Shown: in pieces, positions 27,844 through 34,134 of the stretch | Layout of the letters: every line of letters begins with the position of its first letter | How positions within the stretch are numbered: the stretch's first letter is position 1 | IMG/VR virus record: IMGVR_UViG_2851966386_000003 | Coordinates: 1-49,389 of that record | DNA length: 49,389 bases | Source of the DNA: a virus | Lineage: Duplodnaviria; Heunggongvirae; Uroviricota; Caudoviricetes | Reading direction: 5' to 3' (one strand) | Position numbers and translations under genes: made by a program | Notes under the pieces: generated by a model | Databases searched by the model: none | What the model saw: the letters and a program-made list of their open reading frames with translations, nothing else | What the model was told of the DNA's origin: nothing

Positions 27844-28629
27844 ATGCTTATTCGTAACATGCTCATTAAATATTATTCGGCAGCTGGTGGTGAAGGTGGT
27901 GATGGCGGTGGCTCCGGTAGTGGTGCGCCCGAGATTACGCCGGAAATCCAAAAGCTGATCGATGAGCAGGTCAGTGCTCAGGTTTCAGGCCTGAAAAATA
28001 AAAATAGTGAGTTACTCGGTAAGCTCAAAGAGTCCACTGAGTCGCTTAAGCGTTTTGAAGGTATCGATCCTGACGCGGTGAAAACTATTCTCCAGCGTTT
28101 CTCTGATGATGAAGAGGCGCAACTGATCGCCGCCGGGAAAATTGACGAGGTACTGGATAAACGCACTGAGCGGCTACGTGCTGATGTTGATAAGCAAATC
28201 AAAGCCGCTAATGAACGCGCTGAAAAGGCGGAAGCGTTCTCCAACAAATTCCGTGATCGTGTCCTGGGTGATGCTATCCGCAGCGCAGCGCTTAAGGCTG
28301 GCGCGCTGCCAGAAGCATCCGACGATCTGATTCTTCGTGCTAAAGGCACATTCCAGCTCAACGACGAAGGCGAGGCCGTAGCAGTTGATGCAAATGGCGA
28401 TGTTCTGTTCGGTAAAGACGGCAAAACTCCGCTCACCCCGGTTGAGTGGGCTGAATCCCTGAAAGAGACGGCCCCGCACCTGTTCCCGCGCGCCGAAGGC
28501 TCCGGGGCTGGTGGTCATAAACCCGGTGGTGGTGGCGGTAGTCTGAAACGTTCAGAAATGAGCTCAAGCGACAAAGCGGACTACATCCGCAAACATGGCC
28601 AGCAGGCCTATCTCAAATTGCCTAAGTAA
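27844..28629 (+). CDS. Scaffolding protein (putative)
   Basis: Gly-rich ends, charged coiled-coil-like middle; immediately upstream of major capsid gene. Confidence 0.55.
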   Translation: MLIRNMLIKYYSAAGGEGGDGGGSGSGAPEITPEIQKLIDEQVSAQVSGLKNKNSELLGKLKESTESLKRFEGIDPDAVKTILQRFSDDEEAQLIAAGKIDEVLDKRTERLRADVDKQIKAANERAEKAEAFSNKFRDRVLGDAIRSAALKAGALPEASDDLILRAKGTFQLNDEGEAVAVDANGDVLFGKDGKTPLTPVEWAESLKETAPHLFPRAEGSGAGGHKPGGGGGSLKRSEMSSSDKADYIRKHGQQAYLKLPK

Positions 28630-28639
28630 GGACTAATCA

Positions 28640-29593
28640 ATGTCTACGACCGTAAACAACGACCTGATTATCTATGATGACCTCGCGCAGACTGCGTTTC
28701 TTGAGCGTCGCCAGGATAATCTGGAAGTCTTCAACGCCGCTTCAAACGGCGCAATCATTCTCGACAACGAACTGATCGAGGGTGATTTTCGCAAGCGCAC
28801 CTTTTATAAAGTTGGTGGCTCTATCGAATCGCGCGACGTTAACTCCACCGACACGGTAACGAGTAAAAAAATCGGTGCCGGCGAATCTGTCAGCGTCAAG
28901 GCACCATGGAAATACGGCCCGTATGAAACCACTGAGGAGGCGTTTAAACGTCGGGGTCGCGACGTTAGCGAATTCTCCGAGGTGATCGGCGTCGACGTCG
29001 CTGATGCGACGCTTGAAGGTTATATCAAGTATGCCCTTCAGGGACTGGTTGCAGCCATTGGCGCAAATGCTGACATGACGGTATCCGCGGATATTGCCAC
29101 TGATGGTAAGAAAACGCTGACCCGTGGCCTGCGTAAATACGGCGATAAATTTAACCGTGTTGCGCTGTTCGTTATGCATTCCACGACCTATTTCGACATT
29201 GTTGATCAGGCTATCGACAACAAAATTTACGAAGAAGCTGGCGTGGTGGTTTATGGCGGACAGCCAGGCACGCTGGGTAAACCGGTGCTGGTAACTGACA
29301 CCATGCCGGTTGACGCGATTCTTGGTCTGGTGGCTGGTGCGGTATCCGTAACAGAATCACAGGCTCCGGGCTTCCGTTCCTACGATATCAACAACCAGGA
29401 AAACCTTGCCATTGGTTATCGCGCAGAGGGTACGGTTAACGTTGAACTGCTGGGTTACAGCTGGGATGAAACGAAGGGCGCTAACCCTGACCTGACCAAA
29501 ATCGGCACTGGCGCGAACTGGAAGAAACATTTCACTAGTAACAAATCCACTGCAGGCGTACTGATTAAGCTGGAAGCCCCTGCGGGGGAGTAA
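28640..29593 (+). CDS. Major capsid protein (putative)
   Basis: 317-aa ORF after scaffold-like gene. Confidence 0.65.
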   Translation: MSTTVNNDLIIYDDLAQTAFLERRQDNLEVFNAASNGAIILDNELIEGDFRKRTFYKVGGSIESRDVNSTDTVTSKKIGAGESVSVKAPWKYGPYETTEEAFKRRGRDVSEFSEVIGVDVADATLEGYIKYALQGLVAAIGANADMTVSADIATDGKKTLTRGLRKYGDKFNRVALFVMHSTTYFDIVDQAIDNKIYEEAGVVVYGGQPGTLGKPVLVTDTMPVDAILGLVAGAVSVTESQAPGFRSYDINNQENLAIGYRAEGTVNVELLGYSWDETKGANPDLTKIGTGANWKKHFTSNKSTAGVLIKLEAPAGE

Positions 29594-29601
29594 CCCTGTC
29601 A

Positions 29602-29874
29602 GTGGATAAAACTTCCGCAACTGCTGACAGTACCGACGCGGTGACCGTTTCGCTCAAGTACACCAGAAATGGTGCCGGAGTCTCCGGGGCAGCTGTGGCG
29701 TGGACGTCTACTGGCGGCACGCTAAGTGCTTCGACGTCACAGACAGGGTCTGCTGGTGGCTCGACCGTGAAACTCACCTCTGATACGGCCGGCTCCTTCA
29801 CGGTGACGGCTACCGTTGACGGCGTGGTGAAAACAACTGAAGCGATCGCGTTCACTGCTCCAGCGGATGGTTAA
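29602..29874 (+). CDS. Ig-like domain protein (head decoration, or capsid extension via -1 frame)
   Basis: Thr/Ser-rich beta-strand pattern typical of Ig-like domains; GTG start 11 nt after GGGGGAG; open frame extends upstream to 29569 in -1 frame relative to capsid. Confidence 0.45.
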   Translation: MDKTSATADSTDAVTVSLKYTRNGAGVSGAAVAWTSTGGTLSASTSQTGSAGGSTVKLTSDTAGSFTVTATVDGVVKTTEAIAFTAPADG

Positions 29875-29914
29875 CTGACGGGGCGAAAGCCCCGTTTCTT
29901 TTGGTGAGGATCCG

Positions 29915-30310
29915 ATGACCGTTTATATAACAATCCAGGACGTTGACGGGTTGCTGGGGGATACCTGGGCTGCTGCTGACAAAAAGGGTAAAGCCGTGCT
30001 ACAGGCAAATACCTGGATGACGGCGCTGAACCTTCAGGATATCGAGCAGGAGGATATCCCCGAAGAAGTTAAGCAGGCCGGAGCGTTTATCGCTTCCGTA
30101 GCCGCTGCAGGCAATCTGTATCAGCAAAAAACAGATTCCGGCGTGGTGACGAGCAAAAGCGTTGAGGCCGATGATGTGAAGGTTTCCCGCACTTTTGCCG
30201 AGCTCTCAACCACCAGCACTGAATTACTCGATCCTGATTTGCAGCTGGCGCTGGATATGCTCAAACCGTGGATGATTAACCCTTTCCAGACGTTCTTTGT
30301 GAGGGCGTGA
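29915..30310 (+). CDS. Head-tail connector/adaptor protein (putative)
   Basis: Position between capsid and tail genes. Confidence 0.4.
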   Translation: MTVYITIQDVDGLLGDTWAAADKKGKAVLQANTWMTALNLQDIEQEDIPEEVKQAGAFIASVAAAGNLYQQKTDSGVVTSKSVEADDVKVSRTFAELSTTSTELLDPDLQLALDMLKPWMINPFQTFFVRA

Positions 30311-31660: not shown

Positions 31661-32833
31661 GTGAGCTCAGGTGCAAAAGTAGTAGCCGCGTTTATTCGTG
31701 AGACAACGCCAGGTATCACGCCAACAGCAGGGGCGTGGAACCTGCTGCGGCGTTCTTCATTTGGTCTGAAACCAACGCAGAACACCAACGACAATGACGA
31801 AATCGCGGGTGACCGCATGGCGCAGGGTGTTTCACGCGGCACAGTGGATGTCGGGGGTGATGTCGGCACGCGGTTTCGCTGGAATCAGCATGACGATTTT
31901 CTTGCCAGCTGTTTCGGCGCCGAATGGGTAAATAACGTGCTGACGATGGGTAATGGTCGTATTACGTTCTCCGTGGCGACCTTTGCCAGTGATGTGGGGA
32001 TCGCCCAGATTGCCCGCGGTTGCCAGGTTGGTACCTTCCAGATGGAAATCCCGGCCGATGGTGATATCACTGCAACCATTACGTTTGCAGGGCTGGACTG
32101 GGAGACGAAGGGGGACGATACCAGCTATTTCACCACGCCGGTTGATTTGGCGGGGGAGCTGCGTTACTCCTTCAAGGAGGTCACGAATATCCGGCTGAAT
32201 GGTGTTGATGGCGGGACAGGTTTCTGCGTCGACACTTTTAACATCCAGTTCAACAACAATATGCAGACTCAGCGCTGCATCGGTACCGGTTCGGCGTTCG
32301 CCGGCGCAAACATTCCGACAACCTTTACCCCGTCAGGTCAAATCACGCTGTCATGGTCAAAGGCTGCATGGGAGGTTTACAAAAAAACGTTCACCGGCGA
32401 AACGGTGCCGTTTAGCTTCACCCTGGAGAATGCTGAAGGCGCCTATACCTTCGATTTCCCGGAAGTGCAGATCTCCGGCGACTGGCCGGATGCGGGGAGC
32501 ACTGACATTGTTCAGGTTCAGCTGGATATCACCGCGGCCAATACTCCGCCAACTATCACCCGCGTCCCCAAAGTGCCGGCGACGGCAATCAGTGTTGCGC
32601 CAGCCACTTCAACTGGAGCAGTGGGATCTACTGTGACGTTAACCGCCACGCTTACGCCAGCTGATTCAACTGATACCGTCCAGTGGACGTCATCGGATCC
32701 GACTATCGCCAGCGTGGTTTCTACCGGGCAGAAAACAGCGAAAGCCACACGTAACGCAGCCGGCACTGCAACAATCACCGGTAAGGCCCGCACCTTTACG
32801 GCAACGTCTGAAATCACCGTTACCGCGCCTTAA
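31661..32833 (+). CDS. Major tail (tube) protein with C-terminal Ig-like domain
   Basis: 390-aa product; C-terminal ~90 aa Thr/Ala/Ser-rich Ig-like region; followed by chaperone G/GT. Confidence 0.7.
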   Translation: MSSGAKVVAAFIRETTPGITPTAGAWNLLRRSSFGLKPTQNTNDNDEIAGDRMAQGVSRGTVDVGGDVGTRFRWNQHDDFLASCFGAEWVNNVLTMGNGRITFSVATFASDVGIAQIARGCQVGTFQMEIPADGDITATITFAGLDWETKGDDTSYFTTPVDLAGELRYSFKEVTNIRLNGVDGGTGFCVDTFNIQFNNNMQTQRCIGTGSAFAGANIPTTFTPSGQITLSWSKAAWEVYKKTFTGETVPFSFTLENAEGAYTFDFPEVQISGDWPDAGSTDIVQVQLDITAANTPPTITRVPKVPATAISVAPATSTGAVGSTVTLTATLTPADSTDTVQWTSSDPTIASVVSTGQKTAKATRNAAGTATITGKARTFTATSEITVTAP

Positions 32834-32886
32834 TTTACCTGGCCCGTTCTGCAGTCATCGCGGATCGGGCTTTTTTGGGAGTCTTT

Positions 32887-33369
32887 ATGCTGATTATTTC
32901 TTCTCAAATTGATTTGAACGGAGAACGCTGGTTTTTCCCTTACAAAAAGCCGGCAGGCAGTAAAAAGAAATTCACGCCGGAAGACGAGGCGCTATTTAAA
33001 CTCCGTCTGCTGGTGGCCAGTAGCGAGAATCCGCAATACCGCTCACGCAATGCGCTGGTGCGGCGCCATATCGACAAAATGGACGCGAGCTACCAGGTCG
33101 GTACGGATGCTTTCGATCTCGCCAGTGTGGGAGAGATTGACTCGGTTGATGATCTTCTCATCGACAATTGCGCGCGCTTTCTTCTGAGAGACTGGGAAGG
33201 CGTGGGGGAGCTGGTGGATGGTACGGAGACGGCGGTAACTTACACGCCGGAGCGTGGTGTTGCGTTACTGAAGCAAAACCCCTCTCTGTACTGGCTTATT
33301 CTGGCTGAGGCGGCGGACATTGCTCAGGGTAAGGAGCAGCAGACTCAGGAAACCGTAAAAAAGCCATAG
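32887..33369 (+). CDS. Tail assembly chaperone (gpG-like)
   Basis: Position between major tail and tape measure; ends at slippery AAAAAAG; GGGAG SD. Confidence 0.65.
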   Translation: MLIISSQIDLNGERWFFPYKKPAGSKKKFTPEDEALFKLRLLVASSENPQYRSRNALVRRHIDKMDASYQVGTDAFDLASVGEIDSVDDLLIDNCARFLLRDWEGVGELVDGTETAVTYTPERGVALLKQNPSLYWLILAEAADIAQGKEQQTQETVKKP

Positions 33370-33704
33370 AGGCCCAAAAGTGGCTAAAGGAATTCGCCGG
33401 CGAGCAGGGCGAGAAAGCAAAGTGGCGCAGGGAGAAACTAAATCTCTCGCCCATTCCGGAGCCTGAAATCGATGCAGTCACTGGGGAGATCCTCAACGCT
33501 TACGCCATGATATCGCGCGGCAGGAAATATGCTGGCATGGCCGGAGTGCCGCTCCCTCTATCCCTGAACGATATCGAGCTTTACCTGGCATCGCGCACCA
33601 TCCTGATCGACCGCATTGAGTTTGACGCAGCGATACTGGCCCTCGATGATGCCTGGAGGGATGAGTGGGCCGAAGAGCAGAAAAGACAGGCGAAAGTGAA
33701 GTAG
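33363..33704 (+). CDS. -1 frame extension of tail assembly chaperone (T portion of G-T fusion)
   Basis: Slippery heptamer A-AAA-AAG at 33357-33363; -1 frame open without stop from 33363 to 33704. Confidence 0.6.
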   Translation, partial: AIEAQKWLKEFAGEQGEKAKWRREKLNLSPIPEPEIDAVTGEILNAYAMISRGRKYAGMAGVPLPLSLNDIELYLASRTILIDRIEFDAAILALDDAWRDEWAEEQKRQAKVK

Positions 33705-33771: not shown

Positions 33772-34134
33772 GTGGAACCGCTTTTAGGTTTTATGCTTTT
33801 TGGGCTAGCAGTTATTGTTGTAGCAGTTATTGCTGCAAAACGAAATGGGATAGGTATTGCGTTCCTTTACCTTATTGGTATGTGCGCTATAGGCTTCGGC
33901 TTGGTCGTTTTAGCATCAAATATCACAAATGGAAACGGCGTTATCGCTGGTTTTACTGCATTTATTGCGCCGATTCTTGGTCTTCTTATTGTCTTATCAT
34001 CGTCTACATCTGAACGCCGAGCAGTGCTTAATGGTGAGTCTGGTGAGTATAAAAAATGTCCTTTCTGCGCCGAGCCTATCCGCAAAGAGGCCATTAAATG
34101 TAAACACTGTGGAAGTGATATTGAACAGACCTGA
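33772..34134 (+). CDS. Membrane protein with C-terminal zinc-ribbon (moron)
   Basis: Three hydrophobic helices then CPFCAEPI...CKHCGSD; own terminator; start uncertain (GTG 33772 or ATG 33793). Confidence 0.5.
   Translation: MEPLLGFMLFGLAVIVVAVIAAKRNGIGIAFLYLIGMCAIGFGLVVLASNITNGNGVIAGFTAFIAPILGLLIVLSSSTSERRAVLNGESGEYKKCPFCAEPIRKEAIKCKHCGSDIEQT

Follow-up and report, generated by a model that had tools for sequence, protein, structure and literature searches.

Capsid Locus and the Overlapping Ig-Like Reading Frame

The DNA examined here is IMG/VR virus record IMGVR_UViG_2851966386_000003 (Caudoviricetes), and the whole record, 49,389 nucleotides (nt), is referred to as the window. Its source is a temperate Klebsiella siphophage. 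The major capsid protein gene is followed by an open reading frame (ORF) that encodes an immunoglobulin-like (Ig-like) domain and lies in the -1 frame relative to the capsid gene (Table 1). The best explanation for this arrangement appears to be programmed -1 frameshifting, by which a capsid-Ig fusion would be made beside the plain capsid protein. This explanation is considered likely on the basis of the sequence comparisons given below.

The capsid gene product matched Pfam PF20036 (Gp13-like) over its full length (profile positions 1-313 of 313, 359 bits, E = 2.8e-107), the PHROG 247 major head protein (E = 6e-77), and a major capsid protein in PDB, 8xb6 (E = 2e-24). The capsid region shares 96-99% identity with Klebsiella phages ST16-OXA48phi5.1, ST974-OXA48phi18.2, Kpn_R1, and others.

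The frame of the Ig-like ORF is closed upstream by a TAA (29566-29568), overlaps the last seven capsid codons and the capsid stop codon, and terminates at a stop at 29872-29874. Only 29587/29590 to 29871 would be translated after a shift. A preliminary description of this DNA, made without database searches, had placed the ORF at 29569-29874, a GTG start at 29602, the sequence GGGGGAG 11 nt ahead of it, and a -1 frame overlap with the last seven capsid codons. All of these coordinates proved correct when the sequence was read again. The 90 amino acids (aa) read from the GTG to 29874 had also been described as Thr/Ser-rich and Ig-like, and both terms hold. Thr and Ser make up 34% of the residues, and Thr, Ala, Ser, Gly, and Val together 73%. 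The ORF matched Pfam Big_1 (PF02369) with 61.5 bits (cut-off 34.9; E = 8.6e-17) at profile positions 2-92 of 93, and the ORFs of relatives scored between 58 and 67 bits. Ig domains of intimin in PDB (6tpl) matched at E = 7.6e-15.

The point at which the domain begins is informative. In every lineage tested, the first residue of the Big_1 match is the Val whose GTA codon overlaps the capsid TAA, four residues ahead of the GTG, and the intimin alignments start at the same Val. The -1 frame codons GTA ACC, which contain the capsid stop, are the opening of the Ig domain. The domain is joined to the capsid C-terminus through a short linker, EAPAG(G/E). An AlphaFold2 model of the hypothetical fusion has an all-beta Ig part with a predicted local distance difference test (pLDDT) score of 77-88. 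In this model VTLSVDK forms beta-strand A, with a lower pLDDT of about 49-62. The GTG encodes the second Val of VTLSVDK, and a start there would be predicted to cost strand A four residues. The capsid part of the model was unusable (pLDDT below 50, with 14 sequences in the alignment).

More than 140 distinct sequences, drawn from many enterobacterial genera, show this layout, and it is not a product of chance. The 90-aa ORF, counted alone, is on record for at least 1000 contigs. It is entered in databases as an "Ig-like domain-containing protein" of 90 aa, or of 77 aa for variants with GCG in place of GTG. PHROG 9781, to which it belongs, is labelled "unknown function," and its GenBank names include "hypothetical protein" and "cobalamin biosynthesis protein."

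Distribution of the Ig Module Among Relatives

Two sets of relatives were compared. The first held 162 close relatives from IMG/VR, and the second was a wider sample of 80 loci, one genome per species, gathered by capsid alignment. GGGGGAGTAA is invariant in the 162 close relatives, several of which have GCG replacing the GTG. A Big_1 ORF in the -1 frame that abuts the capsid stop was found in Citrobacter, Enterobacter, Pantoea, Pseudocitrobacter, Escherichia, Lelliottia, Providencia, Proteus, and Moellerella. Complete Escherichia coli genomes contained no near match to the capsid-Ig locus.

The hypothetical fusion was also searched against 5.8 billion proteins. An in-frame capsid-Big_1 protein was found in Arsenophonus (P0002, 405 aa), with 75% identity over 99% of the fusion. 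In-frame capsid-Big_2 proteins of 401-402 aa are present in Ewingella, Sodalis, Yersinia enterocolitica, and Y. intermedia (P0014, P0027, P0033, and P0038). Several relatives in Enterobacter, Serratia, Pantoea, and Pseudomonas have no Ig module. Thus, the module can be in frame, out of frame, or absent, and the capsid C-terminus seems to be a tolerated and repeatedly used attachment point for Ig domains. Since it is missing from several relatives, the module itself is probably accessory. This is the pattern of the class of Fraser et al. (2006), in which an Ig domain lies 3' of a structural gene in another frame while homologues carry it in frame or lack it.

Some matches were set aside. ORFs after the capsid stop in Pseudomonas were considered as Ig extensions reached by a +1 shift and were ruled out, as each is no more than the following gene (MELIYTNQ...), which has an ATG of its own. 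In Pseudomonas prophages (L197-L240) this conserved gene (MELIYTNQ...DPxKRYRNP...) follows the capsid gene. Read from stop to stop, it overlaps the end of the capsid gene in the +1, -1, or 0 frame, according to the strain. It is presumed to be an ordinary downstream gene. Pattern matches outside capsid genes at three other loci (L287, L309, and L335) were chance matches or unrelated Big_1 proteins.

Putative Slip Site

Before the capsid stop, the -1 frame is open only from 29569 to 29590, a stretch of eight codons up to the end of the stop, and any shift must therefore fall within it. The only element conserved across lineages in this stretch is the final heptamer, G_GGG_GAG in the window, which is invariant in all close relatives. 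The sequence AGTAA at the capsid end does not vary in an alignment of 19 sequences. Another candidate slip site, C_CCT (29578-29581), was ruled out, as relatives read GCT CCG or TCC GCA at that position.

Three types of junction were seen among about 130 distinct sequences. The majority, with the window, have N-G_GGG_GAG-TAA. Relatives in Proteus, Providencia, and Moellerella have G_GGA_AAG-TAA, a canonical heptamer that is phased with the zero frame at the homologous position. The Lelliottia type has GTA_AAG-TAA, which contains the tetramer A_AAG. In E. coli, G_GGA_AAG is one of the three most efficient -1 heptamers (PMC4066793, PMC5009743), and A_AAG is the most efficient tetramer (PMC4066793). 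All 146 of 146 distinct junctions have G as base X of the heptamer, with the codon of this base specifying Ala, Val, Glu, Ser, Pro, or Thr; in the codon preceding this one, all four third bases are used. The invariance of this G points to selection on the nucleotide for -1 re-pairing of glycyl-tRNA and not on the protein.

Predicted Downstream Hairpin

A hairpin is predicted 5 nt (TAACC) after the heptamer, a distance inside the 5-9 nt range expected of bacterial -1 sites. Its free energy in the window is -11.5 kcal/mol (z = -3.65), and values in relatives range from -12.7 to -16.3 kcal/mol, with z down to -6.2. RNAalifold recovered the hairpin independently from 19 diverse sequences. All 10 stem pairs are intact in each of the 19; the changes present are one-sided and compatible with wobble pairing. 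The 14 codons of the junction and hairpin have a third-position entropy of 0.46 bits, in comparison to 1.41 bits in the rest of the ORF (Mann-Whitney p = 4e-6). Their few variable third positions lie in the spacer, the loop, and pairs that tolerate wobble. The in-frame fusions of Arsenophonus serve as a control, as they keep the same residues, LSVDKTTATAN, without the outer stem.

Synonymous positions in the hairpin loop (29604-29620 of the window, GGAUAAAAC) are also nearly invariant across genera. An inner GGA/UCC helix in the loop is possible, and two sequences break it. No conserved complement for a pseudoknot between the loop and the sequence downstream was seen when the alignment was inspected by eye.

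Start Codons, Selection, and Alternative Routes to the Ig-Like Domain

Start codons were counted over 20 diverse lineages, including L174 and phage PHB10. The position of the GTG is occupied by GCG in 14 of them. In Enterobacter quasiroggenkampii (L173) there is no ATG, GTG, or TTG in any of the 101 codons of the -1 ORF, and the only such codon in Proteus and Providencia loci (L185, L188, and L193) is a GTG at codon 63 or later. In E. coli phage PHB10, which is of the GCG form, the annotated gene starts at an internal ATG, which leaves 70 aa. In diverged relatives, with a proportion of synonymous differences (pS) of 0.54-0.76, the ratio of nonsynonymous to synonymous substitution rates (dN/dS) of the Ig ORF against the window is 0.08-0.19. 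This is purifying selection, and thus the ORF is translated. Since the GTG is mostly GCG and no substitute start is present, the ORF has no start of its own in most lineages.

These counts bear most directly on the possibility that the Ig ORF is an independent gene. Ribosomes would initiate or reinitiate at the GTG with GGGGGAG as the Shine-Dalgarno (SD) sequence, and a free 8.6-kDa Ig-like decoration protein would bind the capsid non-covalently. This possibility is unlikely. The window and most close Klebsiella relatives have both the GTG and the SD-like run, a separate 90-aa protein is listed by NCBI and PHROGs (phrog_9781), and reporters have shown weak -1 initiation from SD-like G runs (PMC4066793). 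In addition, the Pantoea relative has GGGGGAG TAATG, in which an ATG in the Ig frame overlaps the capsid stop. However, purifying selection persists where the GTG is GCG. Where the GTG does exist it is buried in the 10-bp stem, its 11-nt spacing from the SD-like run is long, and its use would remove part of strand A. An independent gene would also leave unexplained the invariant -1 abutment, the selected G at position X, and the canonical heptamer in relatives. A free Ig domain would have no evident capsid anchor, whereas relatives have a covalent fusion. Judged by the codons present, reinitiation at the GTG cannot be the general mechanism of the family, although some may occur and give a free 8.6-kDa protein in the Klebsiella clade. 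The TAATG form itself was seen in two copies, Pantoea sp. 1.19 (L165) and L290, and in these, classical stop-start coupling may accompany frameshifting or take its place.

The preliminary description had named both a decoration protein and a capsid extension made by frameshifting. It preferred the independent gene, and this preference is not sustained by the loss of the GTG under continued selection, the start of the domain upstream of the GTG, the canonical heptamer and hairpin, and the in-frame fusions. The comparison with homologous capsid genes that it proposed favors a frameshift extension instead. Its remark that there is no canonical slippery heptamer is accurate for the window but does not extend to the homologous site in relatives.

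A start at a non-canonical codon in the -1 frame, such as CTG 29596-29598, could in principle serve all lineages without any frameshift. That CTG is invariant and stands 5 nt past GGAG. CUG starts are very rare and weak in enterobacteria, and this counts against the idea. SD-driven initiation at AUA after G_GGG was seen by Sharma et al. (PMC4066793), and GGGGGAG would have to act in the same way here. The Proteus-type (GGGAAAG) and Lelliottia-type (CGTAAAG) junctions have no good SD sequence, yet the arrangement is kept, and neither the zero-frame phasing of G_GGA_AAG nor the conserved G at position X would be explained. This route is regarded as very improbable.

Transcriptional slippage would have RNA polymerase add or drop a base in the run of five Gs (29584-29588), so that a subset of mRNAs joins the capsid and Ig frames with an identical fusion as the outcome. 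To be productive, such slippage normally requires A or T runs of about 7-9 or more (reviewed in PMC5009743), and the Proteus-type (GGGAAAG) and Lelliottia-type (GTAAAG) junctions have no run of this kind. A conserved 3' hairpin at 5-nt spacing fits ribosomal slippage instead, and slippage by the polymerase is hardly to be expected. The least credible proposal is a dead remnant, in which a former in-frame fusion like those of Arsenophonus and Yersinia was split by a 1-nt indel and the Ig ORF is unexpressed, as more than 140 distinct sequences keep the ORF whole across genera with synonymous sites near saturation and dN/dS of 0.08-0.19, and nucleotide-level conservation of heptamer and hairpin would not be expected in a pseudogene.

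Proposed Mechanism

Under the frameshifting explanation, a fraction of the ribosomes on the capsid mRNA would slip back one base at G_GGG_GAG, just before the TAA, while the hairpin pauses them. These ribosomes would read on in the -1 frame (GTA ACC CTG...) and make a 411-aa, 43.2-kDa capsid protein with a C-terminal Big_1 Ig-like domain. Slippage of the P-site tRNA-Gly alone would give the junction ...KLEAPAG-G-VTLSVDK..., with the tryptic peptide LEAPAGGVTLSVDK. If both tRNAs slip in tandem, the junction would be ...APAGE-VTLSVDK..., with the tryptic peptide LEAPAGEVTLSVDK. Most ribosomes would not slip and would end at the TAA, giving the 34.3-kDa capsid protein. The 34.3- and 43.2-kDa forms would then co-assemble, and the head would display Ig domains on a very short linker in sub-stoichiometric numbers. 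By analogy with other Ig-like phage proteins, the head Ig domains would probably give weak adhesion to carbohydrates of cell surfaces or mucus.

Several points weigh against this mechanism. The window heptamer allows perfect re-pairing in the P site but in the A site only near-cognate re-pairing (GAG to GGA). It is not of the strict X_XXY_YYZ form, and the re-pairing of tRNA-Glu needs a central G.U pair. The apparent activity of G_GGG in E. coli reporters has been ascribed to -1 initiation driven by its SD-like character and not to slippage (PMC4066793). Reinitiation after termination is also possible in the window, whose GTG has the SD-like GGGGGAG 11 nt upstream. The hairpin stem has no compensatory double changes among the 19 sequences, and its z is only -1.66 in a 70-nt context. 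Finally, no trans-frame product, the joined protein of 411 aa, is recorded in a collection of 15 billion proteins.

A broader proposal is that G_GGG_GAG, the UAA, and a hairpin at 5-nt spacing form an efficient and uncharacterised class of bacterial -1 signal, or a dual-mode signal, with slippage giving the fusion and SD-guided reinitiation giving a free Ig protein. Across a large clade of prophages in Klebsiella, Enterobacter, and Citrobacter, it would have taken the place of the canonical G_GGA_AAG. As a signal class of this kind, it may have as stimulators the SD-like run of Gs within the slip site and the stop codon next to it. This broader proposal is tentative and rather doubtful.

Gene Neighborhood and Other Features of the Window

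The capsid gene lies between a scaffold-like gene and an adaptor gene, as expected for Gp13-like capsids of the SPP1 gp13 type. Relatives without the Ig module (L166, L180, L183, L184, L186, and L191) have a terminator hairpin equivalent to that of Table 1 directly after the capsid stop. A search of Rfam gave no match to a frameshift-element family; the only match, STnc400 over the terminator, was below threshold (E = 0.14, 20.8 bits against a gathering score of 80).

Table 1. Features of the capsid-Ig locus, in window coordinates.
Feature	Position	Strand	Remarks
Scaffold-like gene	27844..28629		Upstream of capsid gene; Phage_scaffold match 25.7 bits, under the Pfam cut-off of 35
Major capsid protein gene, zero frame	28640..29593	+	317 aa, 34.3 kDa; HK97-fold Gp13-like family
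-1 frame ORF, stop to stop	29569..29874	+	One complete Big_1 Ig-like domain, 95 aa
Proposed -1 shift site, G_GGG_GAG	29584..29590	+	Last base of GCG plus final two capsid sense codons; non-canonical
Capsid stop, TAA	29591..29593	+	Directly 3' of G_GGG_GAG; within -1 frame codons GTA ACC (Val-Thr)
Predicted stimulatory hairpin	29596..29630	+	10-bp stem (29596-29605 with 29621-29630), 15-nt loop
GTG, annotators' start of a free 90-aa (8.6 kDa) protein	29602..29604	+	Within 5' arm of hairpin and beta-strand A
Intrinsic-terminator-like hairpin, GACGGGGCGAAAGCCCCGTT, plus T tract	29877..29906 (hairpin 29877-29896)	+	Ends the scaffold-capsid-Ig unit
Head-tail adaptor (Ad1) gene	29915..30310		Downstream of capsid/Ig unit

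The names given to these genes in public records can be misleading. In two near-identical phages (L001, MK416013.1, and L002, MK448234.1), the GenBank names of structural genes are plainly wrong. The Ig ORF is called "cobalamin biosynthesis protein CobN," the capsid gene is called "Ig domain-containing protein," and head-tail genes appear as "glutamate 5-kinase," "electron transfer flavoprotein subunit beta," and "protein singed." The 317-aa capsid protein has no Ig domain, yet it bears the name "Ig domain-containing protein" in many NCBI records. This name was probably inherited from the in-frame fusion homologues.

Other features were noted in the tail module. The tail tube protein (31661..32833, Pfam Phage_tube_2) has an in-frame C-terminal Big_2 Ig-like domain at residues 307-376. 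With Big_2 on the tail and Big_1 on the head, both parts of the virion would display Ig-like domains. The tail assembly chaperone gene (32875..33369, PHROG 313) ends in GTA AAA AAG CCA TAG, with a canonical A_AAA_AAG at 33357-33363, two codons ahead of the stop. The -1 frame there runs to 33704, into an ORF listed at 33507..33704. By its sequence, this is the classic tail chaperone frameshift site of the G/GT type, and the phage would then use two -1 sites. Beyond the chaperone region, a 120-aa ORF (33772..34134) has a strongly hydrophobic N-terminal two thirds and a tail with a CPFC...CKHC motif that resembles a zinc ribbon. This ORF may be an insertion in the tail module that encodes a moron or membrane protein.

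Comparison with Known Systems

T4 Hoc and other Ig-like decoration proteins are said to be displayed on the outside of the head, with a presumed role in weak adhesion, a view associated with Fraser in 2006 and with the model of bacteriophage adherence to mucus (BAM) of Barr in 2013. Hoc is alike in that its Ig-like domains are shown on the head exterior. It is unlike the present case as a separate protein with its own capsid-binding domain; the single Ig domain here is without a separate anchor and is covalently joined in relatives.

The A2 slip heptamer is said to be of the canonical C_CCA_AAG type, and the long capsid form of this Lactobacillus phage is reportedly essential. The heptamer of the window is non-canonical and abuts the stop, and the Ig module is missing from several relatives, in contrast to the essential role reported for the A2 long form. 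A2 also differs as a phage of a Gram-positive host with an unrelated capsid sequence. The A2 proteins gp5A and gp5B, as described in the title of Garcia et al. (2004), cited in PMC5221750, and in a review (PMC5009743), are alike in that the major head gene yields, by a -1 ribosomal shift at its very end, a second and longer capsid protein with an Ig-like extension.

The addition of Ig-like C-terminal domains to phage structural proteins by frameshifting is an established class, which the present locus fits in each of its features, and -1 frameshifting makes Ig-like capsid extensions in T3 as well as in A2 (PMC5009743). Gene 10 of T3 and T7 is alike in that two capsid proteins, 10A and 10B, are made from one gene by a -1 shift near its 3' end and are both found in the virion (PMC5009743). 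The T3 extension is Ig-like (PMC5009743), whereas that of T7 is not. Both are podoviruses with another capsid family and canonical heptamers, and the Ig type is another one. Coat protein frameshifts are also known in Listeria phages A118 and A500 (-1) and PSA (+1) (PMC5009743). These phages and the class of Fraser et al. (2006) share with the present locus a C-terminal extension appended by recoding. The occurrence of one Ig domain in frame in certain phages but out of frame elsewhere has been read as promiscuous domain shuffling (PMC5009743), and Gp13-like capsids show no Ig domain, an in-frame Big_1 or Big_2, or a Big_1 in the -1 frame. Proteus-type relatives have the exact heptamer of lambda G/GT, G_GGA_AAG. 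The lambda products are assembly chaperones outside the virion, whereas the product here would be a variant of a structural protein.

Significance

Literature searches found no described example of an enterobacterial Gp13-like capsid with a Big_1 domain, and public records give two separate genes. What is new here is a widespread enterobacterial Gp13-like family with a Big_1-type Ig domain and a stop-abutting putative slip site that varies between canonical and non-canonical forms. Public annotation uniformly misses the probable capsid-Ig fusion. At present, the locus is entered as a capsid gene and a short gene called "Ig-like domain-containing" or "hypothetical," with a start that shifts with the internal codon available (90, 77, or 70 aa). 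If the frameshift is real, recognising it would correct thousands of records.

The family also contains an allelic series made by nature at a single site, with the states G_GGA_AAG, A_AAG, G_GGG_GAG, fusion in frame, and absence of the Ig module. Such a series could serve in work on the evolution of frameshift signals and the workings of a non-canonical heptamer. If the proposed mechanism is true, a very common prophage family of Klebsiella, Enterobacter, Citrobacter, and Proteus shows an Ig-like adhesion domain on a fraction of its capsid subunits. This would be relevant to phage display and engineering on these capsids, and to ideas on how phages adhere to gut mucus or cell surfaces.

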